From NCBI GenBank assembly GCA_002269645.1, contig NIVC01000273.1, positions 225,165 to 289,164 on the forward strand: 64,000 nt of DNA. The letters are read 5' to 3'. Shown piece after piece: positions 5,510 to 52,689 of this stretch (its first letter is position 1; each line of letters opens with the position of its first letter). The notes below the pieces were generated by a model. That model worked only from the letters and a program-made list of their open reading frames with translations. It was not told where the DNA came from and ran no database searches. Origin of the DNA: Macrostomum lignano (lineage: Eukaryota). The translations under genes and the position numbers were made by a program.

Positions 5510-7498
<1,989 letters not shown>

Positions 7499-13190: not shown

Positions 13191-13193
13191 ATT

Positions 13194-17440: not shown

Positions 17441-17442
17441 AT

Positions 17443-18017: not shown

Positions 18018-18054
18018 GTATTCCACCGAAGCCGCTAACCGTTTTGGAACGGTT

Positions 18055-18700: not shown

Positions 18701-18702
18701 AT

Positions 18703-19283: not shown

Positions 19284-19331
19284 CGGGTCCTACTTAGAAT
19301 TGATATACCAGAGGAATTTAAGGACCCAACA

Positions 19332-19871: not shown

Positions 19872-19888
19872 ATTCATCGACAAAGAAT

Positions 19889-20911: not shown

Positions 20912-21331
20912 CTGCCACCTCCGCAAGCAACTCAGCCACCGCCGCCGCTCATGATGCCGCCGCCAATGTTGCAGCTGCCGTCTTCAAATGGTCGAGGACG
21001 AGGAAGAGGAAGTGGGGGGAATACTAACCCCCCAAATCTGCAACCATTCCCGCCGAAGTAATTAGGAATAGTCAGGAATAGTTAGGAATGGTAAAGACTG
21101 CAGTCTTCCTTCCATAATTTTAAATTGCTTTAAAATGTGTTTAAATATGCCAAAATTTTCTCTTTTCGGTTTAGGGTTCCTCTTTTTGGTTTAGGGTTCC
21201 TCTTTTTGCTTTAGGGTTCCTCTTTTTGGTTTAATAATATGCTTATTTTTCGCATATTTTCGGCATTTATTAAATAAAAAATATATTTTTTTAAGATAAG
21301 GTTCTCTTATACTAAATCTTCTATCGCCACA

Positions 21332-23734: not shown

Positions 23735-25119
23735 GGTGCAGAAGAAGCTCAAAATCTATGAACTTCTGACGTCGCTGCCTCGGTTGCAACACTGTTAAGT
23801 CCGAGTTTCCTTCTTGTTGGATAACGCTACTCTCATTTTAAGTGAGTACCGCTACCAACGCGACGCAAATATTTGGACTGACCCAGCAGTTCCGCAAGCC
23901 AATCAAATGCCAGAAGGTGCTCATGGTAACGTTGTTATCCCTGGGGCAGCAAATGTGGCAGCAGCTGGTGGAACCGAGGATGTGCAGGAGGGTTAAAGAC
24001 ACAATACGCGCTCGTATACCCAGTAAGTATAAATCTATATCAACCCTGGAAGAACTCTGCCCTATACAATTCGCTGTACACGAAATGAGCGGGAGGAAAA
24101 TCAATATTATTCTGGATCTGAATAATATCGATTTTGGATTGTGCGAGGATCTACAATATCTTGTTCTTTTTCTACCTTCATTCATTTCCAGCCTTACAAC
24201 TAGCTCGCACGTCGCGGAGGAAATTCTCAGCCGGATAGCCCTGCGCACTCAGTGTCTGCTCTTTCCTCCTTTGCATCTGTTTTATGTAAATATAATTGTG
24301 AATAAATGAACTCAGTATGTTTTTTAGTAAGCTTTTGAGTGTGCTTTTCGATTTCTTCTGTTGCCGGAGGACAGATGTTGGTAGAGAAACCGAAAACTAA
24401 AAGAGGCCATTTTGAGTCACCTGATCTGATTAAGGCAGAATTGTTCCCTGTCAAACTAGCCTATGATCTCACTGTAATGAGAGTGGTCATGCAAGTTCAC
24501 AAAGATGCGGAGGTTGAGTTTAAAGATGACACTTGGTATAGGGAATTGGGATTCGAGAAAAAAGTTTATAAGGCAGAACCCGGTGTAAAAATCGACGTCG
24601 AATCGACTTCGAAAATTTTAGGCCGAATCGACGTCGAATGATGTCCCGGTGATTCGACGTCGATTCGAAGTCGAGTTTTTCGGCCTAAATTTCGCGATAC
24701 TTCCTTGATTTTCGCCTCTGAATGTGCCTCAAAACAAACAAAATTCTTTAAAGAAATAACTTAATTTAAATATTCAATACGAGGGTGACTTCATGTAGTA
24801 TATCTTTTGAATGCGCGGCATTAAATCAGAACAAAATAACCGCATAAAATGGAACACAAAAGCTGAAATATGGTTTATTTTTAAAGAAACTACGAGCGCA
24901 GTAAAGAGAAGCTTTGGTATATAAATTAACAAAACAATTACAACGATTAGAAAAGACAACGCAAAAAGTCGGAAAAACTAAAAACTAAGAAATTTATGAT
25001 GAATGGACTTTGATATCCAGCGTCTTTGAGAAGCATATATGAGTATTAGTTCGTATTTAAAAACGTATCATGATGCAGACATCTAAGCACTCCCTTAAAT
25101 TCACTCCTCATGTCGCTTT

Positions 25120-28799: not shown

Positions 28800-29930
28800 A
28801 CAAATTGCAACTGCCTTATAACTTCAGCGAAGTTATAGTAGCTGTCGTAATCTTTTACGAGTACATAGTTTACTCCATACTCATGAAACCAGTGTCTTTG
28901 GAGAGCTAGATTAATATTAGGGACATTGATATCAACGTCGGGCCAATATTTTCTCATGTACTCACTGCATTCAAGTTTTTATCGGTATTTACTCTTGTAA
29001 TTAGGCTCGTGCGCTTTGTAATAAGAACCTGGAGAGACGATTGGAAGCATTTTTATTGAGAATTTAATTTTTTTCGTAGGATGAGCACTCTGCGCTGAGG
29101 ATTTAAAGTCTTAGGGATCTGGTTTCGCGAATTGAATGTGGGGAGAAGAATGAAGATTATTTTCTGATTGTTTCGAAGATGCTATGGGTGGATTTCAGTG
29201 GATTATGTAGGACACCTGTTGAAACGAAAAATTATATGAGTTTTTCCCATATTATCGTTTCCTTCTGCCAACAGTTCAGGAAGACAACGAACAATGGACC
29301 TCGATGGTAACTTTCTCTGTGTGATCTCTAGAGTCACATTCTCAAACTTCAGGCGAGGATCTTTCCTCTTCAATCAGTATATTTTATAAGCTAGCACACT
29401 GTACGCGAGCAACGAGGAATAGGAGCAGTAGGGAGAGAGAGTGGGATTTCGAGGCCCAATAGGCAGTGTCGGTCAGAGGTTGTGCATGCATCACGCGAGG
29501 GTCGCATGGCTGGGCTTCTTGCTCGCCGATCATCAGGACTATTTTTAGGCATGCAGATCTTGTGCATCTGGGGAGTTGCTGCCAAGGCTGGATGCTTGTT
29601 CACGCATCACGCGCGTGTCGGCTGATTTCTCCCATCCTCTTGCTAACGGCGCCTTCGTTTCACTTCACTGTTATGCTCTGATTTTGTCGTGGAGGAAGGA
29701 GGATAGGTTAGGAGGATTATGTTCGAAGTTTTCGGAGCAAGTAGGACACCTGTTATGCTCTGATTCTGTCGGGGATAATATGGATGGATTTAATGGGATT
29801 ATGGAGGACGTTTTGTGAGCGAGTGCGACCCCCCTTTTTCTGATTTTGTCGGGGATAATATGGATGGATTTAATGGGATTATGGAGGACGTGAAAAATTT
29901 GTCCCAGAAGCCACCTCATGCATTCTACTC
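28800..29930 (-). pseudogene. 'KYWPD' family, copy 4, with ~76-bp repeats at 29700-29900
   Basis: Nucleotide homology to 12690-13190 and 8352-8895. Confidence 0.6.
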
Positions 29931-30401
29931 AGAGTTGTTCTTTGGCAGAGTAGGCAAACTTCACTCAATTGCCCCGAAGGGTCGCAGACAGTCTGATGAG
30001 TAAGACAGGAATTCGGGACTCTATTCGCGCCACACGCAAACAATTTTGCATTGCAACAATATGGTCGGCTATAGCAAGGCAAGTAGGCAAACTTCACTTG
30101 ATCGCCCCGAAGTGTCGCAGGCACATTGCGATGACTAACACAGAAATTTGGGGTTCTACTCGCGTCGCAACAATAGGGTCGACTATAGTAAATTCATTTT
30201 ATCGCCTGAAGGCTCACAGAGACATTTTTATGACTAACACAGGAATTCGGGGTTTTCGAGTGCCCATCCACCCACGGCACAGCGAGTCACGCTTTCTATT
30301 CAAACCAAAAAGCGAGGCCAAAATTTTTTCCCACGTGTTGCTCTCGCCATGTGAGTTGAATTGATTGAATGAACTCTTTCTATTGACCTGAAAAAATATA
30401 T

Positions 30402-31270
30402 GTGAGCACCCTGCCGCAACTGAGTAGCTATTTTACCCCCCGCCAAAAAACAGAAATACATGCAATGGCCGCCTCTACTTCTATCCATAGTCAGATAATC
30501 GACACTATTAAGAGTATTAGCACCAAACACTCAAATAGTTCCGCCGTTGTAGTTAGTAAGTTGGGTGTTGATGAACAGTGCCAACTACTAAAAAGTCTAA
30601 AAGTAATAGAAAGCCAGTCCACGAAGAAAAATCGCACCAGAGAGAAAAGCAACAACGAAGAGGCAAAGTATCTAAGAGAACCTCGATTTATTGCTTGCTT
30701 GAAGGAAAAGCTTGACAATGTGAAAAACGAGGCAATTGTCGTCAAAACTCGGTAAGTTTTATTATAGAATCTTATCACTTAGTCAATAGCTTTTCAATGA
30801 GAAAAGAACATATTTTATTTCAGTTTCAATGAAGCGAAGGATTTATGCGCAGAGGAACTTAGTCAGGACGAAGACCAACTAAATCGATCGGTTTACTAAG
30901 CTGGAAAAATCTTCTTTGCCGATCTAGAAATTTTAGCCTGCCTTGCTGGAAGGAGGCAAGCGGAAGTTATTGCTAAGCTACGCGAATCCCTTGACTTGAG
31001 CATCAAAGGCGATGCTGCTAAACTGCAAATCGATGAAAAGTTCGCAGAAAGACTCTTCACAATCTAATTGTCAAATATCCAGTCCTGGTGGTTTCAGGCT
31101 ACAACTTTGAAACACTGCTAACCTACAAGGCTCTTATTCAGAAAACGGCGACAGAAGACGAGAATTTTGCTTGTCGCCTTAAAGTTTCACTAACATACGA
31201 TTCGAGGGAGAAAACGAGAACGACGACGAGATCGACGGCGAGAAGATGCTGCTTGACGAAACAACGGAAG
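30402..31270 (+). pseudogene. Two-exon 'SSAVVVS/HTH-like' gene, copy 2 (intron 30752-30823)
   Basis: Same KTR|GTAAG donor and the same 72-nt intron length as copy 1; exon 2 has several indels. Confidence 0.6.
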
Positions 31271-32631
31271 ACATGGCCAAGTCATCAATTTCTGGATAAA
31301 AAATGTCCAGAAAAATTTTTGGAGATCCACAAAAATGACTCAACATTAAAAAATGTTTTACTGCTTTTGTTACTACTCAAAGTAGTATACAAAACATCTT
31401 TTTGAAAAAATACACATTTACCTACACATTTACATACACATTTACACATTACCTACACATTCACATACACATTTACACTTTGGATTAAAAAATATTCTTT
31501 TGTAAATTCACGCATTCTTTTTCTCCTTTTTGATCTCTTGGCACAATAATTTTACCAAAAATCATAGTGAGTTTCAGGCCGTTTAGTTTCAATAGATGCA
31601 ATGGCAGCGAAGATGTTGCACTGCATTGCGCGTATATTTATACAAGTGAATACAGCGCGAGATTATTAAGGGGCCGAGGGAGGTGCGCACATGTGGCGTG
31701 GCTAAAGGATTTATGTAGCATTATTTCATCACCAACCTGCGGAGCTGCCACTTCATCATCTGTGGACTCCGCTATAGGCCCATTATCTGTGGGCTTTTGC
31801 TGCTGACGCCGAAGCCGCTCAGCTTGAACGTATTGTTCAAATTCTTCATCACTAATCTCTCTGAGTTGTTCCATTTTTTATAAAATAAATACAGCAATAA
31901 AATCTTCTTGCTTAATTTCTGTTTTGCATTGTGTCCGACCGAATTCGACATGAGGGGGGGGGCTATTATTCGTATGTAAATCTTTACCTAGTTTCTCATG
32001 TTCCAGTGCTATAAAATCTCTCCATGTATTCACCTATCGCCCCTAGGGTCGCGAGCATTGTTCAATTGTATCTTACCTGGCCCACTTCATATCTTTTTAC
32101 AACTAGAAAGAGGGTAAACACAAAAGACTTGCATGAGCCACTCCTATTGAATGCCAAAACCAAACACTTTTTGGCAGAAATTTTGGTTTTGGCAAAAATT
32201 TTGGCAGCCAATAGGAATGTTGAGTGCTGTGTTTATGTATAATTAGTTTTGTGAGTTCCTGCGAGAGCTTTTTTGACCATACGCTTCACTCAGTGTGGGT
32301 TCCACACGGCGTTAAAGCTAAGTCACAATATACAAATTAGTTTCAGGAGAAGTTCTCGTACTGAATGTCTAAAGCAGTTCCTAGAAATTGTGGTTTATTA
32401 ATGGCCATTTTATGACGAAAAATTAAGCAATATCAAATTTGATGACAGTTTCAAATTGTTTACACCTGAAATGGCATTGAGATGAACCAACGATTCCAAA
32501 ATAACTATTGATTTTAGAGCTAGAATTGTGCAAATGACACTTTTTCAAAATTATTGAAAAAACAAATCCCTAAAATCACTGTTTTAAGACCATTTTCACC
32601 TTTTTAAGTCATTTTTAGTGAATTTCAAGGT

Positions 32632-33024
32632 ATGCTTTGCGCTCAAACCTACCCATCCGATACCACTCCTGCCGATGATGAAGGCGGTGATGTGGTAGAG
32701 CGTCTGCAGTGCGCTCTGCTTCGTCTGAGAATGTCGCAGAAGAGTAGTCTGCTTCATGCGACCCAATGTGGAAAAATCTTGTTGACATTTAAAGCCAGTA
32801 ACCACAACTACGGTAGGAAGGCACGAAAACAGCATTTTGACTGTCTTTTTGATCGAGTAAACCTCAATGTTTCGTCAGCAAATTTTTATATGAAGTTATT
32901 CATGCTGGAAAGTGAATACCCTGGTCTTAAGCAAGTCTCCTTGCCGCTTCGTGATTTGAACACTAATATGTTAATATTAGTTGAAATCCTTGAGGATGAT
33001 CAGTCATGGAAGCAACTTGTCTGA
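32632..33024 (+). CDS. 'YP-L' family protein (130 aa)
   Basis: ATQCGKILLTFK...SSANFYMKLFMLESEYPGLKQVSLPLRDLNTNM aligns by eye with the 12308-12691 protein. Confidence 0.6.
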   Translation: MLCAQTYPSDTTPADDEGGDVVERLQCALLRLRMSQKSSLLHATQCGKILLTFKASNHNYGRKARKQHFDCLFDRVNLNVSSANFYMKLFMLESEYPGLKQVSLPLRDLNTNMLILVEILEDDQSWKQLV

Positions 33025-33306
33025 AAATAGACACTCTAGCCTGCTTTGGATTGGTCAGAAAAGGTTAACGCGTTGGCTTTTTCCCTATTGCAGAACACAC
33101 GAGAGAAATAGTTGTATATGGTATCGTAATAATTTTTGTAAAATAGTATACGGACGCTCTAGCTTGCTTTCGATTGGCCAGGGGACAAAGAAATGCCAGG
33201 GGACCATGCAAGATCTGACAGGTTTTATCGATTCTATCGATCAATTTATTGTTGAGGAGCATAAGGATGACGGGTAAAGAAGACATGGTTCGAGAACTCC
33301 CCGAAA

Positions 33307-33885
33307 ATGGAGGAGGTCTCCCAACAAAGACCCTCCTGCCAGTACGGCCACGGCATATGTTTTACGTGTTTTGACACGGGCCTAATACACCGGTGCCCCT
33401 TGTATCGAGATCCTCTTATCTATTGCATTTTCTGCGGCACGGACCCGCAAATCCGACTATGCAGCTCCAAACAATGGAGCTGCTTTACGTGTCTCCAACG
33501 GCTGGCCGGAAGGAAAATTACATACTGCCCAATGTGTATGGGTCCCTTTGAGGACACGGCAACTGACATCAGCCGCTTCACGCCTGAGCGATCCGGCTTG
33601 TGCTTCACAAACATTAACGAAATGACGGCGCAGGAGATCGCTGCCAACATTCACGATTGGCCGGTGCCCGCTAGTTACCAAGACACCCGGCGACGTCTAC
33701 TAAGCATGGGACGCTACCATGCTCAAAGTAACAGCCAAGTGACGACGGAAGCGATTTACCAACACCTTCTGGAGGCCACCGAACACACGGAATACACGGC
33801 CCTCCAGCCGCTCATCTGGCCAGTGGCGGTATTGGCATTTCGTGCCCGGCGCCTGATACACGGATTCCTAAGGGAACTTTTTTGA
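33307..33885 (+). CDS. Tandem double-RING-like protein (putative E3 ubiquitin ligase), first RING partial or degenerate
   Basis: CQYGHGICFTC...CPLY; CIFC...CSSKQWSCFTC...CPMC; conserved C-terminal IY..LL...LQ.L.WP.A.L domain. Confidence 0.7.
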   Translation: MEEVSQQRPSCQYGHGICFTCFDTGLIHRCPLYRDPLIYCIFCGTDPQIRLCSSKQWSCFTCLQRLAGRKITYCPMCMGPFEDTATDISRFTPERSGLCFTNINEMTAQEIAANIHDWPVPASYQDTRRRLLSMGRYHAQSNSQVTTEAIYQHLLEATEHTEYTALQPLIWPVAVLAFRARRLIHGFLRELF

Positions 33886-34134
33886 AACATAAAACAACCA
33901 AACACCACTCACTATAAGGCCTATTCTCCTAGCTAACTTCATTAATGTTACAAACGCATGTAAAGCCATTACTTGATTCGTTTATCTCATTACTTGCTGA
34001 TATTACTGTCAAATCATTCATTTATCTCATTACTTGCTTATATTACTGTAAAAGCATTCGTTTATAAATAAAATTACGCCTGCAACATTTTAAACAAAAT
34101 ACCACTCTTCTTTAATAATGTATTAAAAATTCGG

Positions 34135-34610
34135 GACGAAATTCTTGTAAAAAAGGGAGATATTGTAAAGATCTAAAAACTTAGTTGCCTACTAAAAGTA
34201 GTAAGATAAAACTATGAATAAAAATTTAAGAATAGCTATGCGTCATACTCTTTTTTTCTAATACCAGTAATATCGCGAAAATAGCGAGTGACTATGCTAT
34301 TGTCCGAAAAACCGGTTCTCGACATCTATTTTCAGAACTTCAAAATATGGTAAATGTTAACCTGAATGTAACATAATTCTCACTCTTTTCTATTCAAAAA
34401 ACCCCACCTATCAAATAATAAAAAAATTTTCGTGAACTCATCAAATAAACCGGTTTTGAGCTCAAGGTCAACTCAAGGCCGACAAATTGTGCATAAATAT
34501 AAACGCAAAATCCGAGCTGAAATCTCAGACTCGGAGCAGCCTCCAAAAAGCTTTGGCTCTGCAAGAGCAGCCAAACGAGGCTACATCTCTGAGGAAGAGA
34601 TTAAATATCA
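34135..34610 (+). mobile_element. Integrase-tail/PPT motif (34135-34163) plus LTR L3 (34164-34610)
   Basis: ATTCGGGACGAAATTCTTGTAAAAAAGGGAGATAT|TGTAAAG; roughly 85% identical to L1 by eye; CA followed by ATTGGTAAGC. Confidence 0.78.
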
Positions 34611-34904
34611 ATTGGTAAGCTTTGTTCGAGTCTTCGTTAGTAGTAATAGAAAATTACGTCCATACCCCATCTTTCAATTGCAAAACACGTAATAAGGTAC
34701 CCGTCAGAAATTTTATTACGCACATACCCTATTTTTCGATTAAAAATCAAGTAGTAAGGTACCGAACCAAACGGTAGGGTATTCTACAGGAATTGTAACT
34801 ACACTGCACCGCACCCACAAAGAATCCAAAAGAAGAAAAGATCTCAATTTCGATCAACCAACCAACCAACTTGTCCAAAAACGCACTTTCGGTATATTTC
34901 TGCA

Positions 34905-35290
34905 TTACAAAAACAGAGGCAACACATGTGCTGCAAAGCGTCGTAGACAAAAATACGCGCGCCGAAATTCATTCCTTCGACGAGACCCACAACCAAGAAT
35001 ACGCGTTAAAAAGAATCGAAGGCTACCACCACCAGTCAGTTTGAAATACAAATAAAACAACACCCAAATACCGCAATGACCAGTCCGAGGATCCTGAATA
35101 GCAAATCGGCTGTAGGACCAATTTTGAAAATCCCCACATTCTCGCCCCAACCACCGTCTAATATTTTCCGGTGGATTTAAGCCAAGCGAATCAAAATATT
35201 CCCCGACTCTTCGTCCACGGCGCCCCCTTACCCGTCTGCTACTCACCCAAACTGCAACCCAATGCCTACCAGGAAGATTCGAAGTGTCTG
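34905..35290 (-). pseudogene. Adenain-like protease, N-terminally truncated, inside the mini-Polinton
   Basis: NTDTSNLPGRHWV, YFDSLG, IQDPRTGHCG; an inverted fragment (GRRVGEYFHSLG) sits at about 36105-36155. Confidence 0.85.
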
Positions 35291-35642
35291 TATTCGCTTG
35301 GCTAGGAAAAAGCAAGCTGAAGTCTTGAATCTACTGAAAGAACATCTTGGCTTATCTACCGAAGACACTGCCAAGCGTCTCGACATTCCAACAAAGTTCG
35401 GGCAGCGCTTGTTCACATTTCATTCCCTAACAACAAAGTACCCGAACATCGTTTTTTCGGGTTACAGCTTCGAGACGCTACTAACATTCAAGAAGACAAT
35501 TGAAAAGGAAGCCGAAGATGATGAGAATTTCCGGTGCCAATTGGAGAATGCGCTTAACATCGTGTTCGAGCATGAGAAGGAAGAGAAGGACTTGCTAGAT
35601 GAGATCGATAAAATGGAAGTTTTATCGACAAATGAAGGCTAA
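35275..35642 (+). pseudogene. Exon-2 fragment of the 'SSAVVVS/HTH-like' family inside the mini-Polinton
   Basis: ARKKQAEV...LSTEDTAKRLDIPTKFGQRLFTF...KYPNIVFSGYSFETLLTFKK..E.DENFRC. Confidence 0.75.
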
Positions 35643-36528
35643 GAGTGACATTTTGAGCATTTTTTTAAATTAACAAATTCTGGAAAAAATTCTGGATTTC
35701 CAGAATCGGTTGGTTAGTTTGCATCTTTGGACAGCAGGCCGGGCTGCCACAGACGCAGGTGCTTGACACCGTGGCCAGGGCCGTGTGCGTGGCGACTGCT
35801 TATACGCCGCGGCGGCTGATGACGAACGCCCGGATTGATGAAATCAGGACGGTGTGCCGAGCGGAGGGAATTAATCTACTCGGACGACACGGGACGGGGA
35901 TACTCGCGACGGCGTCGGGACTACCATCCGACCGCCGCTGCACTTCTTTGGACGGTGCTGGCTACTGCCACCACTTGAGGTCCGACGGCTCCGTGTCCAT
36001 TGAGAGTGTGGCCAGATTCCGGGTGGACGAGACTGCGAATAGTTTTAAGATGGTATACATGCGCGCTCCGCCGCGGGTGCGTCGCCGAGATCCTTAAACT
36101 TAAGGGGGAGCGTGGACGAAGAGTCGGGGAATATTTTCATTCGCTTGGTTTAGAAATATACTGAAAATGCGTTTTTGGACTAGTTGGTCAGTTGATCGGA
36201 CTTGGGATCTTTTCTTCTTTTGAATTATTTGTGGGTACCGTGCAGTGTAGTTGGATTTCCTGTAGAATACCCGACGATTTGGTTCGGTACCTTTTTGAAC
36301 AAGTTGCTTGGTGGATCGAAATTGAGATCTTTTCTTCTTTTGATTTCTTTGTGGGTACGGTGAGGTGTAGTCAGACTTGCTGTTGTATACCCTACCATTT
36401 GGTTCGGTACCTTACTACTTGATTTTTAATAAAAAAGGGTATGTGCGTAATAAAATTTCAGACGGGTACCTTATTACGTATTTTGCTATTGAAAAAATGG
36501 GGTATGGACGTCATTTTCTATTACTACT

Positions 36529-37165
36529 TTCGTTATTTTGATTATTGAGAGCGATTGTTATTGCCGGCCGTTACTGTTCAGTTGATTTTATTGAGTTTGA
36601 GGCCTCCCTTTTCCCAAGGGATTGGATAGGATCTGCGGACCGATTCCGATACCCTTAGAGGATTATCGAGTTATTGATTTTGGATTATCCTAGATTAACA
36701 AAAAGGAGCACACTACTCCGATTCCGTTAGTTCTAGAAGAAGACGCCCTTTCTGGAGGACCTCGTATTGTTATAGAAGTTGATTTTGTTCTTAGGGCGCA
36801 TCGTTGATATTGATTTCTGCACTCGAGTAATACATTGAGTTCTGCACTCGAGGCATACATTGACTTCTGCACTCGAGGAATACATTGAGTTCTGCATTCG
36901 AGGAATACATTGAGTTCTGGATTTGAGGAATAAATTGAGTTCTGCATTCGAAGAAATACATTGAGTTCTGCACTCGAGGAATACTGCGACGTCGATTTTA
37001 TTGTTACGCTCTCACTTTCGGCTGATTTTAGACTTTAAGAAGACTACCCCGGGAGGAACAGCTCTACGGAGACGAGACACTCGCGATAAAGAAGAGGAGC
37101 CCGCGACAAGTGTCTGGAAGTGGGAGTTTTCGAGTGACTGATCACCACTCGATCAAACTCTTCAC
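36529..37165 (+). other. Remainder of the L3 leader, with an expanded ~24-bp tandem repeat (36810-36985) and hairpin loop at 37137-37145
   Basis: Colinear with the L1 and L2 leaders. Confidence 0.7.
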
Positions 37166-38279
37166 ATCTAGAATTTCGGCTCACGCGTTCTCTTTAAGCC
37201 TAGTATCTAACGAAAGCAAAATACAAAACCATCTCTTTGAACAGGTCACAACTTGTTCCACCGAAGGCAGGTCATTTTGTGTCTGAGAGTCTTTTGTGTT
37301 CCTGTCTTACTCATTTTTCTTACCCCTTGAAAGCAACACCAAAGGAAGAAGAGAATCACTGAAATAGGTGAAAAAATACTAAAAACAGGTGAAAGTTGTC
37401 TGAAAATAGCGATTTTTTGTGATTTTAAAATATTTTGAAAAAGTCCCATCTTCACGATTCAGCTCTAAAACCATGAGAAAAGTTGGATTGGCGGGTCATT
37501 TCAATGCCATTTTAGATACATACAATTTGAAATTGGTATCAAATTGCAGATTGCTTCCAGATCTAGACACGCATCACTCGCTCGCTCGTTCTCTCAGTAA
37601 AAACCCTATAATACACGCCAACCCCTACTACTACACATCACTCTCTTAACAATGACACACAACCTCCCTCTGTCTCTTTCTAATCCTAACTTAGCACGCG
37701 CACACTGTGGCACAATGAGACTAATCATGGACACGCTTAACCACGTTTTTTTGCTTAGTGTACTCACGAGGCCAGAATGCGAGGCTCAGCGGCTTTTTTC
37801 TTTCCGAGGCCAGGTAGCTTTTTTCTTTGCGAGGTCAAGTGGCCTTTATATGTGGCCTTTTTTGTCCATAAATACTCATGGCAGATGAAATTCCACACAG
37901 AGTAAAAAAAATCCGAATCTCTAGCTCCACCCAAAATGCCATCGCTTGCAACTCAAGAGAAAAGAATCGCTAAAGTACGCTCCAAGCAGAAAGACATACT
38001 TGCTCATCTCCAAAAGAAGCACAGGGCTAATGATTTGTGCAAGATCCAATTGAATACAATTCTCTAAGGTTGCAACTCTTCATCACTTCAACGCGATACG
38101 GATTTTCTAAATTCCGTAAATGTGAGTAATCTATCCGTTTTTGCATTGACTTAAGAATATCTAACCAAAATCCATTATTTTTTAGAAATTTCAAGAACTG
38201 ACTAAGTCCAATAAGTATCAAAAAGAAAAACTACAATCTTTGAAAAAGGCTAAGCGCGAAAAGGCGCCACCATCCCAAT

Positions 38280-38425
38280 TGGATTGCAACGTTTGCCTCA
38301 ATTAGATGAACGATTCAAGTCTGCTTCATTGAGGACATATCTTTCTGTCTGGATTGCCTTAAAAGGCTACATGGCGAAGGACAAATTATATGTCCAATCT
38401 GTCGCGTCGTGACGACAGTTGGCAA
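38280..38425 (+). pseudogene. C3HC4 RING-finger pseudogene
   Basis: CNVCLN*...H*GHIF-CLDCLKRL...IICPICR, with stops and a frameshift. Confidence 0.65.
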
Positions 38426-38649
38426 TGCTGATGCTCAGACAAAAAACTTTTGTGTTGAGTATTTTGGGACTGCCAAGTTTTCTAGACCCTTCGGCTCAGA
38501 GCACCGCCTCTGATGATCAGATGGATGAAGACTAGACGGACATGAAGAAGATTTAAGACAATAATGATCAAAAATGGTACTATCAAGCATATTGACTAAA
38601 GAAAAAGCTAACTACTAAAAATAACAATCGGGGTAAGTTCGCAAGTGCA

Positions 38650-38850
38650 CTATATTTAGAAGTTTGCAAACTCACTACAGCCGATTCGATAAGCCTGCAG
38701 CATACCAGGCCAGCTAACTTTGCGAGCTAGATTGCTGTCTATTAGAGCTGAAGAAAATAACATTAAGAGTATTTTCTGAACCAAATATGCTAGTTCATCA
38801 TTTGCTCTCTTAACTAAAAACCCAACTATGTTCGTCAATCATTATCGAGA
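38650..38850. repeat. About 200-bp block duplicated at about 43240-43450
   Basis: Both copies read MTNIVGFLV.RA.DELAY.VQK.LLM..SSALI.SNLA.KVSWPGMLQAYRIGCS on the minus strand. Confidence 0.7.
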
Positions 38851-38975
38851 AAATCAAGCACTGGCAGTGAAGTTGCCGCGCGGTGTTTTCCCACTGTTGA
38901 ATAACTTGCAAGTAAAATGTCGCCGGCGATTCTTTGACGAGCCGGAGTCGAAGGCTGCCGGAGAATTTATACTCG

Positions 38976-39360
38976 TGTAGGGAGTTATTAAACCATACAG
39001 TAATGCTCTACTTAAAGTAATATTCTAGGAAAGTCAATTTATTCTAGAATGAGTCATATCTATTTTAGGAATCACGCGCAAACAGAATGATTTAGAACGC
39101 TACATTGTTTGATCAAGGATCCGGATTCCAACAGCTGTATTTGCTTAACCCCATATATGGTAATGCTCAAACATGCATGACCGCTTAAACAAACATTTAC
39201 GACCTAAGTAAATACCCAATTTAAAACCGGTTTTTCTCCAAAAATTTTGCTATAAATATAAATGATAATTCGAGTCAAAAGTTCAGACTCAGAGCGGTCT
39301 TTACGAAGACTCCGAAGGAACAAAGAAGAAGAACAATCTCTGAGGGACCACACTTGTCCA
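38976..39360 (+). mobile_element. LTR L4 (385 bp, divergent), 5'-type
   Basis: TGTAGGGAG start; CTACTTAAAGTA block; TATAAATA; TCAGAC; CA followed by ATTGGTAAGC; leader runs to the hairpin at 39870-39878. Confidence 0.65.
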
Positions 39361-40080
39361 ATTGGTAAGCGTTTACCGGATTCAGTTCTTTGATTGTTAG
39401 CGTTAATAAGTGGATTTATTGAGTTATAAGATAGCAGTTCGTTGTCGATAAATTTGAGAAAGGCTTCCTTTGTTTCCTAGGAAATATTCCTAGAGGATTA
39501 TTGATATGAATTCAGTTATCCGTTACGTTTCGGACGTAACGAAGAAGACCTATTACAGAAACCTAGAGAATTTAACTGTTCAATTGTTCATTAGGGCGCA
39601 CGTGTTATTGTTAATTCCGAGCTCGAGGACCGTCAAGAATTCTGATTCTCGTTTTGGTCGACCCACAGATAGGAGTCAAGTACTCCAGAAGATCACAGTC
39701 GTTCACCGAAACCGGCCCCCACTACCGCTCAACCAAGCCAGACAGCACTAAACACCACAAGGCCCAGACGTCTGCAACTACGAGAGGATCCACTCCAGTA
39801 AGAGTTATTTGAATTTGCAAATACCTAGGCACTTGTTCCCCAGTGTCTAGAAGTGGGAGTTTTTGAGTGACTGATCACCACTCTTAAACTCTTCACTCGT
39901 TCGGTGTCCTTGTCATTCTTTTCAATATTGTTGGAATTTATGCTATATGCTATATGTTATATGCCGATAACGGAAATTGTGCAATCCCCGCGTTGATTGA
40001 GTTTCATATGAAGGGGAGATCTAGGTCATTGAGTTCTAGGTCAAGAGGAGACTTGGAACTGTTCGAACGATAGATTGCGA

Positions 40081-40749
40081 ATGACAATGGCCGAGGCTCA
40101 GGACGGATCGCCGGAAGAGTATTGGAAGGCGCAGGAGGGGTACTTTGAAGAATTGGAACGTAAATTCGCTTCCGTAGACTACGGTAGCGATCGACTCCGA
40201 CGAGTGTCGCCCTTGAGTAGACCGTCTGGTAAGTATAGTTTTTATGGCTGCCACTCCTCTTGTATTGCACCTTATTTTGACAGGGCATCATATACCGACT
40301 TCAGTAGACGGTCGGCGAGACCTCCGTCCGGTCGCGGTAGTTCCGCCTAGTGTGCGGGGCCGCGAGGATCCATATGACGGGGAAATTACTATAGGGAGGA
40401 ATACGTTCCCACCAAGGACAGAGGTATGTAATATGCATTCTGAGTCCGATTGCTTTGTGGTAGTATAACTTACTATACCTTTATCTACTGGTAGGATTAC
40501 TTCAACGCAAGGACGGCAGCTTTGGAGGAGCTACGCGAGGAGCGACCCGAAGTTCGCTATCGTGAAGTGGGTTACGATGTAAGATTGATTTTTAGTTAGT
40601 AGTGCCTGATCTTGTACTTGACGAGTTCATTTTGCCTTTTTTAGCAACTATGCATGAGTGACCGAGTACTTTTGCAGCACCAGTGGGCGACGACAGTTTT
40701 TGCACGAATGCATGAAGTGGGGCTGGAGATGGTGGCTCGGGGAAGGGAG
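40081..40749 (+). CDS. Multi-exon hypothetical gene downstream of the L4 leader (exons 40081-40228, 40284-40423, 40495-40578, 40645-40749; probably continues)
   Basis: Three GT...AG introns of 55, 71 and 66 nt whose removal gives one open frame (phases 1, 0, 0). Confidence 0.65.
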
Positions 40750-43632
40750 GTACGAGACAATATTCGTATGCTTTTCTCATCACATATTGCATTAATAAGT
40801 AAAGAATTTCCATTCTCATTTTTGGAGTTTTTAGCCATGGTGAGTGGAGATGAGCTTTTTGGTGTGGGTATAATTCACTCGTCGTATGAAAATAAATGTT
40901 ATTGTCTGTTCTTTATTCTTGAATCGTAGATTCGCGGACGTGGTCGTGGGACTCGAAACGAGGTATGGATATTGTATTTTAATTGAATGTGATCCCAGTT
41001 CAATATTGTAGCCCAGTTCTATTTTCTGCTGTTGCGTATTTCAGGCTGCGTGTGTTTCGTCCAGCCCAAAACAGCTTACAATGGTCAGTAGTCGCTTGGC
41101 ATGGATTAAACATTGAAGATATAAAGGCTGGAATCTTATTTGACATTTCAGGCGAATTGCACGATCGGAGAAGGGCGAGCTCCCGGACCATCGCAGCCAC
41201 GTGTCCCGGTTAGTGATACATCGGAAACCATGCTCTTTATTTTGGCGGGATGTACATAAGTAGCTAGGTTTGGGAGGTGCTCTTCACGTGCCGGTTTAAG
41301 ATGGAGTTACGAGGTTTTATGGTAGTTGAGTTCATGTTATTTAGTGTGAGTCGGGTCCGTTAATGCATGAACCAGTTCTACTTTATGCTGCCACGCATTC
41401 AAGACTGCATGGCATTGATTAAATCTTGAGGGTGTAAAACAGTTGAAATCTTATTTTTTTAAATTGCAGACAAATTTCGTGTTCGAACGGGGGCGGACTG
41501 CTGGACCGCCGCAACCTTCCACGGTTGGTGTTACGTAGAAGAACATGCTCTTCTTTGTAGGGTGTACACAGTCATATCGGGTTGGGGGACAGGCTGGTAG
41601 TGGTTTAGGGTGAAATATGCAAGTCTATGGTGGTAGAGTTTGTGTTACAACAAATAGTTATTTATACAATCAAATTTTAGATTCCGAAGCCGCCATCCGG
41701 AAGTGGATTTCCTGGTGGTGGTAGGGTTAGTGAATTTTATATTGATTGCAGCGTAGTAAATTGACCTGGTAAATGTATGTCATCTTCCTTGGTTTCAGGA
41801 TGCGGACCTGTCGTAGGCATTCGGGACTCGGCGTGTGGGTTGGCTCCGTCGCCGCCGTCGGCTTGTTTTATGTGGACTGTAGGGGAATTGTATTTGTAAA
41901 TATCTCGTATGCGACTTTTATTTAGTGAAGGCTTGAACATATGTGTATATTTATTCTTTTGGATTCGCTCTGTGTGCAGTATCGTACATGTAAATACAGT
42001 GTGGCGTAGTTCCAAGGCCTTCGTTCGATGTAAGGGCTTGCCAGCGGGGTGTCTCTGTCTTGTTGTGTCATCTTTTATTTACTTGTTAAAAACTTTTAAT
42101 ACAAAAATATACCGGTTTGTCAATGAATGTATTAAAACTTGTAGTGCTAAACTACACGGATTCGATGTTGGTTGAAGTAGCTACTGAAGCCGGCGCTCAA
42201 TCGAGAGGGCGGATAAGGTAAACAAAAGTGGAAGATATGCTTATGTGTAGATGCCGCGGAGACGGATGAAAAGTAACAGAAAATATGCGAAAAAGTATAA
42301 GTACGAATATGAGTGGTTGGTATCGAGGTTTTGAGTTCTATGGGTAAAATATTGAAGCCTAGTGACGGTCCCCTGGTTCTAATCTACGTAGAAATGAAAA
42401 ATACTATCCTGGTCCTAAAATTGTAGACGTTTCGAGAAGTTTAACAATACAGCATAATAAATACAATGTTCATTAGCAGGTAGGCGAGTACACTTAATGG
42501 CGTGCGAGTATAAGATAAGTAGGGGTACGATTTGTAGGCGGCACGCTTGAGCGGGTTAGGACCGGGTGGGGACAGTATTCATTTTTACATGTAAAATTTC
42601 GCATTTTTTGCGAAAACTAATACTACTCGCAAATATTAATATCCAAATCAATACTAAATACTAAAGCTGGAAGCTGGAATACTGAAGCTGAAAATCATTT
42701 GATTAAGACGTGACTATTCATACAGATGCATAAACGAATCTGTAAAAATCAGAAACTGCTATCGTAGAGAATGTGGAATAAAATACACAATTACGTCGCG
42801 CAATTTTAGCGGCTCCCAACTCGATCCACTCCTTCCCCTCAACCAACCCTGACCCTTCCTAATCCACCACACGATCAGTCGTCCGTATGAGTAATTTATT
42901 TGAATATAATATCCTACCGACAGCAGTCCGGAAAATTTTCCAGTCCTGTCCTTACACTCACATTGCATTCAACAACGAATATGGATAAGTCCGCCCGAAA
43001 GAAAGAATTAGATGAGCGATAGGTGAGAGACGGTAAGCAATTATTGGGCTTTTTGATCGGGTAGTAATGGGCTGCGTTTTCTCTCTTTGCAGTGTTCAAA
43101 AACGGGGTGTTTGCGCGGCCACCTCCGAGGTACATGTACCCCGAGAATGTCACCGTTTCCGACGGCGAATATGCCCTGGCTGCACAAGCCCTAGGTGCTA
43201 GGTGATACCGTTTTTTCTTCTGGGAAAAAACACAAGTCCACTATATTTAGAAATATGCAAAGTCACTACAGCCGATTCGATAAGCCTGCAGCATGCCAGG
43301 CCAGCTAACTTTGCCAGCTAGATTGCTCTCTATTAGAGCCGAAGAAGATAACATTAAGAGTACTTTCTGAACGAAATACGCTAGTTCATCATCTGCTCTC
43401 TCAACTAAAAAACCCAACTATATTCGTCAATCATTATTGAGAAAATCAGGAACTAATTTCTAACGATGTTCGTCTTCTTATCTTACTAAAGATGTTGAAT
43501 AAGGAACGGGCTGCACTGCAAGTACAACGAGAAATTGAAACTGCGGAGACAATGAATAATGTGGCAGTCACTCAAAATGACACCAAATTAAACTTAAACA
43601 TGAGCGATCAAGCAGGGAATGGGCACTAATGT

Positions 43633-44110
43633 TATGTGTGAAATCGAAGAGTACAAAGATGGATTTTTTTTATATACCATCAGATGGTAATTGTTTCTAT
43701 AAATGTGTCAACTTTGCTTATGGTGATAAAGCCCCAACTAAAGACTTGGTTTTATGACTCTATAACTTAAAGAGGCACCATGACAAATTCAAAAATAGAA
43801 AGTTTAATAAGCATTTAAATTCTAATATGGGGGTTATATAACCCAACCAATCGCGCTATTGAACCAAAGTCCCAAAAAATCTAACTCGAATGGTTATTAA
43901 TAAATAATTTTCACTCGACAGATTATCACATAGGTCATTATTGGTTGATCAGGAATTCACAAGAGGGCTTGGTCTTCAACATATCAGCGACAACTATAAA
44001 TTAATTTACAAAACTCCAACTACTGAAAACGTTTCTAGGATAGAAGTGTTTGATCACCAACTTTGGCAACTAAAACAAATGTCTATATATTTGATTTTGA
44101 AACATAATTT
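43633..44110 (+). pseudogene. OTU-like cysteine protease/deubiquitinase remnant
   Basis: YIPSDGNCFYKCV catalytic-Cys motif near 43674-43700; stops and indels downstream. Confidence 0.6.
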
Positions 44111-44187
44111 AAAATACAGGAAGTAGAGGAAGACTACAGGAAGAAAACCGAGAGTACGGAGACTGAACCAATCGCGGCTGGAGAACC

Positions 44188-44714
44188 ATGACTGCCTTTC
44201 CTGTCGAAGCAGTTCTGACGCTGCGCCATCTGGCTGACGGAGCAAGACTACACATTGGGGAGGAGTCAACAAACGGCGAATGCTTCTTCCGATCTGTGAC
44301 GTGGACTCGGCCGGGGGAGAAGAAGCGCCAACGAGTAGAAACAGAAAATTCATTTTTTCCTAATTCTTCCCAACTTTCAGCCACAACAACAATTTCAGTG
44401 GAATCGGGGCTGATGAAACATCAAGCAACGGAACAGCAAGTTGTTGGTGAGACGACTAATACCACCTCGTCACCGAAACGTCTGCCTGCGCTATTGTAAG
44501 TAAAGCGGCTGCGGGAGTGTGCTGTACTTCCTCTGTACAACCTCCTACAAACGCCCTTCCTGCGGAGGAAATCTACCTCAACCTACTTCACGAGACCAAC
44601 ACTCGGGAGTACGCAGCCGTTCAACACCTCATTTGGCCCATAGCATTACTAACGGCAAGTATCAATAATTACTTTATCACAACGCTCAACGACCACTTTG
44701 CTTCTTGCTACTAA
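44188..44714 (+). pseudogene. OTU-motif-like N-terminus (NGECFFRSV) upstream of a RING-family C-terminal domain
   Basis: 44517-44714 EEIYLNLL...YAAVQHLIWPIALL matches the double-RING C-termini; the OTU assignment rests on one short motif. Confidence 0.4.
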
Positions 44715-44856
44715 ACATTCACATAGCTCAATTGACTCTACCTTCCACTAAATATGGCCACATAGAAAACAGCATTGTTTCTGCGCACCAATCACAAACA
44801 ATAACCATCGAAACACCCGAGTCCACTACAATTAGTCTACGATAATATATATATAT

Positions 44857-45537
44857 ATGCCACTACTCGCCTACATACATAGCGCAGGCCCTACCAAACT
44901 ATCCTACCACGCTACCATATCTTGCCTTACAATTCCCGAAGAAGAATGCCCCGTCTGCCTGGAGGCCACCTTTCAGCAGGTGATGTGCCAACACGGGCAC
45001 AAAACCTGCTTCAGGTGCGTCGACTCCGGCATGATAGCCACCTGCCCACTATGTCGCGACCCCCTAATAGCGTGTAGCCTTTGCGGGGATAATCCCCAGG
45101 TGAGGCTGTGCCAGTCCCGTCACTGGTGCTGCTTCACCTGCTTGCAAAGGCTAGGTACACGTGGTATCACCTATTGCCCTAATTGCCTTGACACTCTCCT
45201 TCCCCCGACAGTAGAATTAAACCGAAACATTGAAATCTGGCCAGAGGTAGGCCTACATAACCTAGACCAATTCACTACAAAAGAAATCGCCAACAACATC
45301 CGAGAGTGGCCGCTGCCGGTCACGTCGCACGACGCACGCCGGCGACTGCTAGCTCTCGGGCGGCAACACGCGACAATGGAACCACCGAGACCAGCAGAAG
45401 ATGTGTACTACCAATTAGCCAACACAACGGACACCGCCCACCAGATGCAACTACAGTACCTGTTCTGGCCAGTAGCCATTCTGGTGACCCGAACACAACG
45501 AGAGATACGGCGCACCTTGACCGATATTTTTGATTAA
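44857..45537 (+). CDS. Intact tandem double-RING protein (putative E3 ubiquitin ligase)
   Basis: CPVC...CQHGHKTCFRC...CPLC followed by CSLC...CQSRHWCCFTC...CPNC; conserved C-terminal domain. Confidence 0.78.
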   Translation: MPLLAYIHSAGPTKLSYHATISCLTIPEEECPVCLEATFQQVMCQHGHKTCFRCVDSGMIATCPLCRDPLIACSLCGDNPQVRLCQSRHWCCFTCLQRLGTRGITYCPNCLDTLLPPTVELNRNIEIWPEVGLHNLDQFTTKEIANNIREWPLPVTSHDARRRLLALGRQHATMEPPRPAEDVYYQLANTTDTAHQMQLQYLFWPVAILVTRTQREIRRTLTDIFD

Positions 45538-45814
45538 ACACTGACACTGTCACGTACTTAACTGTTTTACTTCTACGTTGCTCTGCAATGTGTATCTTGT
45601 ACATTCGTATTTGACTCTCCTCATTACGTGAAAATTGCTCTGTTTCCCGTTTATATTGTGTCACCATTTCACAACACAACATTTGTAATTGCTTAGCATC
45701 AGGCATGCGATTGTTCACATACTCTTTACTACGTAAGATGAAAATCATTGTAACAACCATGTAAATAAAACAATATCCACCATTTTGATTACTCACCTTA
45801 TAACACAAATTTCG

Positions 45815-45856
45815 AGTTTGAAAAATGGGGTATGGAAGTAATTTTCTATTACTACT
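45815..45856. mobile_element. Right-hand Polinton terminus of the same TIR family as the mini-Polinton
   Basis: GAAAAATGGGGTATGGAAGTAATTTTCTATTACTACT matches 36491-36528; partner end not found in window. Confidence 0.75.
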
Positions 45857-46774
45857 CCTAGCTACTACTGCTTCGTTTTCCAGAATGAGGCGTCCAGCAA
45901 AGTGAAGGAGGTTGAATTCTGGGATCTAACGGACGATTAAGTGAAGTAAGTGATGTGAATCTACTTAAGTTTACCTTGCTTGTGGCATCTCTAAAATTAA
46001 GCAAATTTTTAGATTAGTATGGCGAGACAGAGCAGGCAAGCCAGCGCCAGAATGTAATCCGGCAGTATTTCTTAATAGCGCGATTGAAGACTCGGTGCGG
46101 TCAAAGGCAATGGCTACAGACTAAAACTTGACTAAATTTAGTTTTTATTCTGATTTACTCATACAGATTTGGTTTGTCTCTTGGTTCGAGTGAAATTCTG
46201 ATCCTTTTTAGGCTCTCAGTTTAATAGGAAAACCTTTCTACTTGTAAAACGAACAGTTAGATTCTCATTTCAGACGTTATCCGAAAAGACGGGGGTTACG
46301 AAAGTACAGTTGGAATCCAATCTCTAACTTAAGGCCACGTCTCCCAATACCCCCTCAAATTTGGGTTTGATGGACATACTCTCGCGAGGGGGGGGGGTGA
46401 ACGCTCGGCTTTTCGCTCTCGGTTTTCAAGCTTTTGTCTGCCTTTTCCTCGCAGCTATAGAGTTATCGTGGCCCTCTCTTCGATGTGTGTGTGTGGTAAG
46501 CGTTCGCATGAAATTGTCTAGGTAAGGAACTCGGGCTTGCTACACTTATTTGCTTGCCTCGATTCTTATAACGCAGCTGTACATCGGATTGAGTTTCTTT
46601 GGAGAGGTTAGTAGATGAAAAATGGTATTTTCTTTCGTTCTTTGTGAATGTCAATTTGGGTAGAATAGTTCCATATTCTACAGATGGTTCGGTACCTTAC
46701 CCATTGATTCGTATTCGTAATGGAAAAAACGGCTCTTGTTCTTGTCTTGTCTTATCTTGTCTTGCTACAGGCAC

Positions 46775-46838
46775 TTGTACCCCAGTGTCTAGAAGCGGGA
46801 ATTTTAGAGTGATTGATCACCAGTCTTAATCTCTTCAG
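46775..46838 (+). other. Fifth, orphan copy of the leader hairpin (loop ATTGATCAC at 46812-46820)
   Basis: CCCAGTGTCTAGAAG flank and TGATCA loop palindrome are retained. Confidence 0.6.
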
Positions 46839-50670: not shown

Positions 50671-52239
50671 AATCAAATAGAGAAATTCAAATAGTCATAG
50701 CCAAATAGACCCGCATCCGCAGTCAAGGCGCAGGCGTGGCTGCACTCGAGCGGTGAGCACAGACCGGACAGTGTCCGAGAAGTCGGAGCTCACGCAGTCC
50801 AGCCCAGTGGTTGGGTGGAAAGCGGCTCTGGGGGAGCTGCAGGACTCGGACAGCAGCTGCGGAGGCGCCGCCCACAGCAGCAGCAGCAGCAGGGCGTGCG
50901 GGTGGCATGAGACCAGCGTCCACGTCGCGCACCTGGACACCCCGACAATGTGGCCAGGAGCTCCGTGCGTCCCTGCCATCGACGGGGTGACGAATTGGTC
51001 TCACCCCGGGTATGCAGCCTGGGGGAGCTGTCCCCCACTGTTGGGTTGGCGGTGGATGGCGGTTTTTACAGCGTAAGTCGGTCTGCGGAGGAGCCCTGCG
51101 CACCGGGACTCGGGTCCCCACGCTCTCTGGCCACCCGCCGCAGGCCGCAAATTGGATTCCGCCGTCTACCGCCAGTGCCCACCCGCGCAGAGTCAGCGCC
51201 CCGGCTGCATGGTGCTACGCACCCGGTCCCATTAGCTACGTCTAGCTACAATGTCCGTGACCCGAAGAAGAAGAAGAAGAAGAAGCAGGGCGTGCAGCAT
51301 TCTGGCAGCTTTGGCTTGAGACCAGTTAGGACCCGTGGGATTTAGTGCCAAGCTCCCGGAGACTTGATGCAGAGCAGCAAAGCAACGCGCAGCTCTGGCT
51401 TAAACAGAGTCGCGGCTATTTACATTACTCCGAGTCACTGAGCTGTAATACAAAAAATTCAGGCAGCTGCTACTGCTACGGTGGTATCAGGTATTCGCGG
51501 CCCAGAGTGCAATATTTCTGCCTCAGCTTAAACAGAATCGCAGCAATTTTTATTCCGCGCCACTGAGCTGCAGCTCGGGAAGCTGACAATACAATTGACT
51601 ATGAGCAGAGCAAGAACGACAATCGATATTTATCAGCTAGCTTCGCCCCAGCCAAGCAGAATAGGCAGGCACCGAATCCATTCAACTGTTTTCCGCTACA
51701 GTCGGAAGCCAGTTCAAGCAACCATTGCCTTGGAAAAGCTACATTGGGGTAGCCCGGCAAATGATACCATTAGATTAGATTTGTCATCGGAAGCAGATGG
51801 AATGCTCATGCATCTGCCATAATCCTTTATTATGACTTGTTCACTGCGTCATCGATTTGTTTTGCAAGAAGAATCCAATTTCTCGAGAGCATGCTAAATG
51901 CACTGGCGACAAGTTCCCTACCGGCCTCCAGCTCTAAGCGAGTGTAGCCAGCGTTCAGCTGTCCAAGGCTTAAATCGAGTCAGAAGTTAATAAAGAGAAA
52001 AGATTTGAAACAAATGCGCCATGATTTTTTTAATTCGCTTCGCAGGACAGCCTGGACTGCATCAAATTTATTAATATTTTACACGCTGAAGCGCTCAATC
52101 TTCAGGTATGCGAAAATAGACTGATTGGATTAGTGTAAAAATCATAATTTAGCTAGCTAAAAGTGCAACAAACAGGACTGCAGCTACAGACAGGTGTTGA
52201 ATAGTGCTGAAGCCAGCATCAGCAAGCACTGCTGTGCCT

Positions 52240-52557
52240 TCACTGGAAGGAGATGCCGCTGCTGCCGCCGCCGCCGCCGCCGCTCTCCCTGGCGATGCGG
52301 CTGCCGTACACTTTGCTGACGATGTTCCAGGTCTCCACGTACCTGTCCAGGCACATGCTCACGCACTTCTGCTCGGAGGTGGCCAGCTCCCCGCCGGGGC
52401 TGGGCACGCACTTCTCGAAGCACTTCTCCGTGGAGGTGTTCACCAGCGACTGGATGAGGTTCAGCGCCGTCTGCTGCTGAAGCTGTTCAAGGATTTGGCG
52501 CTTATCGGAGTCCGACCCGCCGCCACCGCCGACACCGCTGGAGCTGAGGCTGTCCAT
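52240..52557 (-). CDS. TIMM13: Mitochondrial intermembrane-space small Tim chaperone, Tim13-like
   Basis: Twin CX3C (KCFEKC, KCVSMC), DRYVETWNIVSKVYGSRIARE C-terminus; intronless. Confidence 0.85.
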   Translation of the reverse strand: MDSLSSSGVGGGGGSDSDKRQILEQLQQQTALNLIQSLVNTSTEKCFEKCVPSPGGELATSEQKCVSMCLDRYVETWNIVSKVYGSRIARESGGGGGGSSGISFQ

Positions 52558-52689
52558 GCTGGCTGGGGAGCTGCGGGGGTCCGTTGCAATTTGAGCTGGG
52601 GAATTGAGACTTTCGGAGCGAATGCCGAAGTAGCAAGTAAATTGGGGTTGGCGGGGATGACCAGGGAGAGTAAATTGGGTTTATGGGGG

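Follow-up and report, generated by a model that had tools for sequence, protein, structure and literature searches.

Gene content of the LTR-ending units

We analysed a window of 64,000 nucleotides of the Macrostomum lignano genome (GCA_002269645.1, contig NIVC01000273.1, positions 225,165 to 289,164 of the forward strand; positions below are those of the window), the first 47 kb of which is a nest of decaying long terminal repeat (LTR) elements and Polintons. Within this nest lie members of two small gene families, one encoding RING-family proteins and the other a helix-turn-helix-like (HTH-like) protein. A sequence-only reading of the same DNA had noted that both families sit beside LTR ends as well as Polinton ends, and had proposed two-way gene traffic, or a chimeric life cycle, between a retroelement and a DNA virus-like element. 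That observation is largely right, whereas its interpretation is mostly not: most likely, the LTR family carries the RING and HTH-like genes as accessory genes, which were brought beside Polinton ends, as we consider probable, through nested insertion.

Four full LTR copies were found on the plus strand, namely LTR1 (16996–18015, 1020 bp), LTR2 (34164–37164, split by a mini-Polinton), a solo LTR (18289–19282) and a diverged solo LTR, LTR-B (38976–39895). All four start with TG and end with CA, and both solo copies are flanked by a 4-bp target-site duplication (TSD; CCGG and CTCG, respectively); these are genuine integrase-type ends. Both non-solo copies, LTR1 and LTR2, are preceded by a polypurine tract (PPT) within a conserved block, consisting of a 10-base motif and then the tract, that opens 38 bases upstream of each LTR (16958–16995 and 34126–34163, plus strand). 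The solo LTRs lack this tract, as expected if it is internal sequence. The two units ending in LTR1 and LTR2 also have in common an internal repeat (8349–8905 and 28802–29929) and a spacer (15749–16014 and 32360–32628), and they show the same order of repeat, HTH-like gene, spacer, RING gene, PPT and LTR. The family is unusual in that small genes, one of them keeping a sense-strand intron, are arrayed ahead of its ~1-kb LTRs.

Each LTR holds donor-like and acceptor-like splice sites. A strong donor-like site lies approximately 390–450 bases into each copy, and LTR1 has an acceptor-like site close to its 3′ end, followed by an ATG ~40 bases beyond the LTR. The stretch concerned is 17443–17960 in LTR1, with equivalents in the other copies. 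The DNA following LTR1 (18019–24309) contains large unknown open reading frames (ORFs), one of them Pro/Gln- and Arg/Ser-rich, interrupted by the solo LTR; they gave no Pfam or PDB match, and a stretch at 19287–19868 showed a weak MACPF-like feature match (0.92, low recognition). This region could be gag-like.

The HTH-like family is represented by a two-exon gene at 14044–14908 (plus strand, intron 14358–14429), with 65–75% identity to the M. lignano protein P0007, and by a decayed copy at 30387–31293 (plus strand), whose intron (30752–30823) occupies the same position. These two intron-bearing copies share approximately 45–52% protein identity. Database homologs of the family formed three clusters with 10 members, all from M. 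lignano, the best being 75% identical. In the predicted structure a long coiled coil leads into a small helical domain, with a weak fold likeness to KorB (Z 6.2, root-mean-square deviation (rmsd) 3.3 over 81 residues) and DeoR (Z 6.0, rmsd 1.5 over 51 residues) that tied with coiled-coil matches, and the Pfam match to HTH_23 was weak (E 0.033). The intact genes are predicted to encode a coiled-coil DNA-binding protein that would serve the element. Near the first of these genes, a foldback at 11007–13149, with 178-bp arms (98% identity) made of the internal repeat of the units, encloses an ORF (12260–12691) weakly similar to one at 32608–33024.

RING-family copies, 31–43% identical in amino acid sequence, lie on the plus strand at 16185–16712 (RING1), 33271–33885 (RING2) and 44857–45537 (RING3, an open frame with two SIAH-like Cys/His clusters and a helical C-terminus). 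Their earlier description as double-RING genes stands insofar as three RING-family ORFs are present, but of the two RINGs of RING1 only the second is intact, the first being broken and in a different frame. A C-terminal remnant of a fourth copy (44529–44699, plus strand; tblastn E 1e-6) is in tandem with RING3. RING1 and RING2 had been said to end about 250 bp before a PPT and LTR, and this was borne out, with the LTRs beginning 283 and 278 nt past the stops at 16712 and 33885.

Assignment to the RING class comes from the alignment, in which a cross-brace Cys/His pattern forms two clusters with SIAH-like spacing; the Pfam match to Sina_RING (E 5e-4) fell below the cut-off. The RING3 model (pLDDT 83) matched RING structures over ~45 residues with rmsd values of 1.5–2.8, none of them at E <0.001. 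A profile of the three proteins recovered five relatives among 1.84 billion proteins, one of them the M. lignano gene model P0001, while a word-indexed protein search returned no RING relatives of near length. A search of viral contigs for RING relatives with genomic context found none, and metagenome contigs yielded none either. P0001 contains tandem RING-family repeats with a short repeated leader between them, which suggests that RING-family genes occur in tandem arrays elsewhere; by eye, the leader resembled a first exon within the LTR, and this was set aside when tblastn against the LTRs gave no match up to E 1.

Non-synonymous differences between copies are fewer than synonymous ones in both families, with pN/pS values of 0.31/0.79 for the HTH-like pair and 0.37/0.85 for RING2 and RING3, and synonymous sites saturated in each case; the two families have therefore been under protein selection at some time. 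The intact RING genes are predicted to encode a RING ubiquitin ligase that would likewise serve the element.

A mini-Polinton inside LTR2 carries an HTH-like fragment

The insertion that splits LTR2 is a mini-Polinton (34639–36528) with AGTAGT...ACTACT ends, terminal inverted repeat (TIR) arms of 244 bp at 88% identity and a perfect 6-bp TSD, TTCGTT, on both sides. Its interior consists of three stop-free gene pieces only. A cysteine-protease gene without its 5′ end (34905–35297, minus strand) points toward the left TIR and matches the protease S273R in PDB (E 8e-6) and Peptidase_C48 (E 0.0095). It is followed by an HTH-like piece (35298 to ~35705, plus strand) comprising the 3′ part of exon 2, 61% identical in amino acids to the copy at 14546–14812, and a 3′ untranslated region (UTR) motif of the family (35670–35705, matching 14913–14949). 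The third piece, ORF X (35702–36097, plus strand), has no visible 5′ end and points toward the right TIR; it is likely a Polinton terminal gene, and a word-indexed search, weak as such, found no protein homolog of it, longer relatives included.

Protease homology stops and HTH homology begins at the junction 35297/35298, and HTH homology ends near 35705; the first ~39 codons of exon 2 are missing and no splice acceptor precedes the piece. The sequence-only reading, which described a TSD-flanked mini-Polinton with exon 2 of the HTH-like family next to its protease, was accurate as to the TSD and the adjacency, but only part of exon 2 is present and the protease is 5′-truncated. No pPolB, integrase, ATPase or capsid gene was found in the interior; the mini-Polinton is a non-autonomous derivative and not a full member of the group. 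A search for protease relatives with genomic context found none in viral contigs, and the TIR motif gave 11 matches in viral contigs, with similarity ending at the motif itself.

For evidence from outside the window we used, besides protein searches, contigs from four runs (X1, X2, X8 and X10) of the 24 listed for the RING3 region. Contig branching, loose ends and joints were judged among those listed for all four runs, and depth is expressed as the ratio to the shallowest contig, which is not a copy number; contigs also drop rare variants. The M. lignano genome is described in PMC5730564 as redundant and repeat-rich, with extra large chromosomes, features that may account for depth ratios of 2–3. 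An empty-site joint from 34632 to 36529, skipping 1896 nucleotides (1890 + 6), was present in three of the four runs. An X1 contig (35255–36427, 12 differences) bridges protease, HTH piece and ORF X, so their fusion is not an assembly error. The HTH piece had a depth of 2.6–3.5 in the four runs, whereas ORF X reached 13.9–36.7 in three runs (3.9 in X1) and the protease 15.5–37 in three runs (2.1 in X1); most relatives of these Polinton ends therefore seem to be without the HTH filler. The junction between RING2 and LTR2 had a depth (2.4–3.0 in three runs, 0.9 in X1) near that of the HTH piece, which may accordingly represent one locus. By its sequence, 35298–35705 reads as a foreign gene fragment between TIRs, as in Pack-type capture, and the piece looks like filler captured by a deletion derivative.

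RING3 is followed by a pre-PPT motif and a Polinton stub

The third RING gene had been reported to end about 280 bp before an AGTAGT-type Polinton terminus. The distance of 280 nt from the RING3 stop was confirmed, but the terminus proved to be a 39-bp stub (45818–45856), compared with the 244-bp aligned arms of the mini-Polinton; 37 of its 39 bases agree with the left end of the mini-Polinton, and it lies in right-end orientation. The stub starts one base after a copy of the motif that opens the pre-LTR block (45807–45816, plus strand), apparently left from an LTR element. On both strands of the 64 kb this pattern occurs three times, at 16958, 34126 and 45807. Its chance is ~1e-5 per site in a Markov model, a somewhat flattering figure in that one degenerate position was set after seeing the third copy, which matches the first at 9 of 10 bases.

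In all four runs a single unbranched contig covers the RING3 3′ UTR, the stub and the same right flank (45455–45960 in X10 and X2, 45196–46397 in X8, 45091–46395 in X1). The depth of this junction (2.2–2.5) is like that of the contigs to its left (43439) and to its right (45993). If RING3 were carried at a mobile Polinton end, branching would be expected at the terminus, but the junction at 45856 is unbranched. A left TIR matching 45856, with the expected TSD CCTAGC, had also been predicted; CCTAGC occurs 15 times in the window but never directly ahead of AGTAGT, so no such left TIR is present there. As far as tested, therefore, the RING half of the pattern corresponds to what the sequence-only reading had named as its own counter-case, an independent insertion truncated next to the RING gene, with the stub directly behind the pre-PPT motif and a single junction and flank in four runs.

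Further debris lies to the right. A second, decayed TIR scrap (46607–46717, TIR positions 100–229, right-end orientation; nhmmer E 1.7e-5, blastn E 0.004) precedes the last 68 bp of an LTR (46770–46837, plus strand; 90% identical to the end of LTR-B, nhmmer E 5e-12), which is located ~1.0 kb right of the stub. RING3 probably belonged to the cargo of an LTR element, and the LTR itself would have been struck by Polintons and then lost by deletion. Two other arrangements were considered and rejected. The interval 45857–46836 scored within shuffles as a diverged 3′ LTR, the LTR profile matching its last 68 bp alone, and 34639 and 45856 do not bound one 11.2-kb element, since their flanks differ (TTCGTT and CCTAGC) and the partner of 34639 is 36528. 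The 13 bases after the stub (45857–45869) close with a second ACTACT, possibly the tip of another terminus.

Probable nested insertion and its alternatives

Taken together, we consider it probable that the arrangement arose by nested insertion, with the RING and HTH-like genes as cargo of the LTR family, the end of the RING3 element overwritten by Polintons and the HTH fragment captured as filler by the mini-Polinton. RING3, with the tandem remnant at 44529–44699, would be the final gene of an LTR unit, Polinton debris having taken the place of its PPT and LTR. Polintons would have inserted at this element and then been deleted down to scraps, an order of events that we infer; the purine tract resembles the inner TIR (AAAAA-GGGG), and this likeness may have steered the deletion. 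The mini-Polinton, in turn, would be a deletion derivative that picked up the 400-bp HTH-like fragment, presumably through a template switch, in repair or replication, onto a copy carried by an LTR element.

Several observations weigh against this account. Pfam and a YxDD scan of the window revealed no reverse transcriptase (RT), RNase H, integrase or recognisable gag of the LTR family, and no TGG-starting primer-binding site follows any LTR copy there, none of which is a proven 5′ LTR; the gag-pol region may have been deleted, lie beyond the window or be supplied in trans. A single contig per run was found at 35597, which reveals no close source for the HTH filler; the window copies are only ~50–60% identical to the piece, and its nearest database proteins (P0008, P0009 and P0016) share 57–59 of 87–88 residues, ~66%. 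At RING3, the 3′ UTR could not be aligned to those of RING1 and RING2 beyond shuffles (nor could those two to each other), the upstream region lacks the internal repeats of the other two units, and 45857–46756 is not LTR-like, so that RING3 is tied to the LTR scrap at 46770 by position only. Moreover, the RING3 coding bin reached a depth of 5–16, compared with 2.2–2.5 at the junction. This points to further RING3-like copies; their ends are not among the joints listed.

The remaining difficulty is the 72-base sense-strand intron, kept at the same place in two diverged HTH-like copies upstream of PPT-LTR ends. An element copied through RNA should tend to lose such an intron. Its retention implies either that unspliced RNA was selected for copying or that the gene had a long history on DNA elements, which would make the kept intron easier to explain. 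The second course underlies an alternative that we regard as unlikely, in which the HTH-like family, and perhaps the RING family, was native to Polintons or another DNA element, was taken up by the LTR family, and survives in the mini-Polinton through internal deletion of a gene-bearing parent; flow would then have been one-way, from DNA element to retroelement. Besides the shared intron position, this would fit the lack of a close non-Polinton donor at 35597, the distantly related ORF (E 0.01) in the TIR-bounded foldback at 11007–13149, and an intron-rich gene inside a probable Polinton end at 42627. There is also a precedent in nematode Mavericks, whose intron-bearing cargo was later taken by a Mutator-like element (MULE), according to 10.1101/2022.07.12.499685. 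Yet the four other HTH-like copies of the window lie outside paired Polinton TIRs and upstream of RING-PPT-LTR ends, whereas the visible 7.8 kb of the larger Polinton (1–7780) contains neither HTH-like nor RING genes. The HTH piece is truncated at either end and lies between two Polinton genes that are themselves truncated. In three of four runs a diverged contig with ORF X and, judged by matching depth, with TIR sequence did not align to the HTH piece at 85%, but as X itself matches at only ~85% this may or may not tell against a gene-bearing parent.

Regular two-way traffic, or a chimeric life cycle in which RING3 ends a mobile Polinton-bounded unit, appears very unlikely to us. Both families do touch Polinton ends in one window, the stop-to-end distances of the three RING copies are alike (278–283 nt), and four or five Polinton-type right ends abut cargo (7780, 13488, 36528, 42627 and 45856). 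The equal distance at RING3, however, would follow if the cut fell at the PPT block, and the end itself is a 39-bp stub without a left partner or TSD in the window, with a single flank in all four runs and the pre-PPT motif at the junction. Nor was any Polinton core gene found in the LTR cargo of the window. What the traffic proposed by the sequence-only reading comes down to is a single Polinton derivative with one promoterless HTH fragment, which would have moved in no more than one direction, and for a chimeric life cycle we found no support; the evidence points to a one-off capture rather than to two-way exchange. We give slightly less credence still to the notion that the LTR family does not carry the small genes at all, segmental duplication in a repeat-rich region having spread a host or viral gene cluster near which LTRs and Polintons merely landed. 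The window ties no 5′ LTR, RT or integrase to the cargo, cargo bins are far shallower than LTR bins, and the genes have TATA-like boxes and poly(A) signals of their own, all of which would suit such a cluster. Against it, two RING copies at 31% identity both end in motif, purine tract and LTR at the same spacing, the third keeps the motif, and the purine tract is missing from solo LTRs, as for internal sequence.

On a broader view, which is conceivable though rather doubtful, these would be large LTR elements of a family not yet described, with a virus-like 3′ array of separately transcribed, partly intron-bearing genes (double RING, coiled-coil HTH and others), belonging to a pool shared with Polintons and exchanged between RNA-replicating and DNA-replicating elements via repeated nested insertion. 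The kept HTH-like intron is the one observation that still speaks for so bold a view.

Relation to known mobile elements

The mini-Polinton resembles the Polintons/Mavericks described in PMC8097293 (Barreat and Katzourakis 2021) in its AGTAGT...ACTACT ends, TIRs, 6-bp TSD and adenovirus-like protease. According to that work, most Polinton copies are degraded and accessory regions flank the core. It differs from the elements described there in being a 1.9-kb element without core genes that holds a fragment of a family otherwise found before LTRs, and the end at 45856 differs in being a stub. The Caenorhabditis case of msft-1/tlpr-1 (10.1101/2022.07.12.499685) is similar in that nested insertion left Mavericks and a second class of transposon with members of one gene family. 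There, however, a whole working gene moved from a Maverick to a DNA transposon, with genome-wide support, whereas the window has a promoterless fragment, an LTR family as partner and an unproven direction. The mini-Polinton also parallels Pack-MULE-type capture, as outlined in PMC6431247, being a non-autonomous TIR element of 1–2 kb with a gene fragment, although its ends are those of a Polinton and the fragment apparently comes from a mobile element and not from a host gene.

For the LTR family, a parallel by description is Burro/GYPSM1, giant gypsy elements of planarians (PMC6431247), as flatworm LTR elements whose accessory domains are tied to ubiquitination and include RING-related motifs; in Burro these domains belong to the Gag-Pol polyprotein, whereas here each is a small gene of its own ahead of the PPT, an intron being present in one of them. 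Ngaro elements in endogenous virophages (PMC8547959) likewise link a retroelement closely to a Polinton-related element, but there the retrotransposon enters the virus, whereas here a Polinton derivative enters an LTR, and the LTRs have integrase-type TSDs. A catalogue of M. lignano lists 137 RT-bearing LTR families (PMC12801592); no match was made between the family with ~1-kb LTRs and those families in the accessible part of that report, in which the family compared has ~340-bp LTRs. No account of a comparable Polinton-LTR cargo system was found in the literature within reach, Macrostomum and flatworm work included, subscription papers being mostly outside it.

The mini-Polinton is a tidy case in itself, a non-autonomous element with part of a gene that also occurs in another class of element, and RING3 adds a caution: in nested clusters, a gene may lie beside a terminus without belonging to it. 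The LTR family is a better lead than the Polinton link. If full-length copies enclose intron-bearing genes, their genomic RNA would have to stay unspliced despite the several splice and poly(A) signals inside it, and if these genes are shared with Polintons, exchange between retroelements and DNA viruses could be traced inside one genome.

Other features of the window

The larger Polinton is represented by its right part (1–7780, plus strand), which ends in ...ACTAATACTACT and runs past the left edge of the window. Pfam recognised a broken pPolB (DNA_pol_B_2, E 8.9e-7) and RNase_H in it, together with a TBP-like ORF (TBP, E 2.8e-5) and a deoxynucleoside kinase (dNK, E 2.6e-17) at 1–1336, beside the polymerase. 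Other ORFs, which we take to be capsid candidates, gave no Pfam or PDB match. The protease of this Polinton is 56% identical to that of the mini-Polinton and is split by a minus-strand piece of a long interspersed nuclear element with RNase H (5750–7225), its 5′ piece lying at 5667–5714.

A further, probable Polinton right end (42616–42627, plus strand) has the same last 12 bases as 7769–7780, and depth falls between bins 42146–42579 and 42580–43013 in three of four runs. The preceding DNA (39896–42627) contains a gene with many short introns, recognised by eye from ~40086, at a depth of ~10 in three runs; immediately left of LTR-B the depth is much lower, a difference not accounted for by simple insertion of a solo LTR. 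A 296-bp element at 13193–13488 has Polinton-like inverted ends and no clean TSD.

A decayed gene with a single C3HC4 RING, from another family, lies at 37880–38560, right after an inverted copy of the spacer of the units, and a 222-bp direct repeat of unknown nature (38642–38862 and 43233–43454) is 91% identical between its copies. Amid minisatellites at 52200–52560 (minus strand) lies an ORF that resembles, and may be, a host gene for a small Tim protein (Tim9/Tim10-like, twin CX3C).

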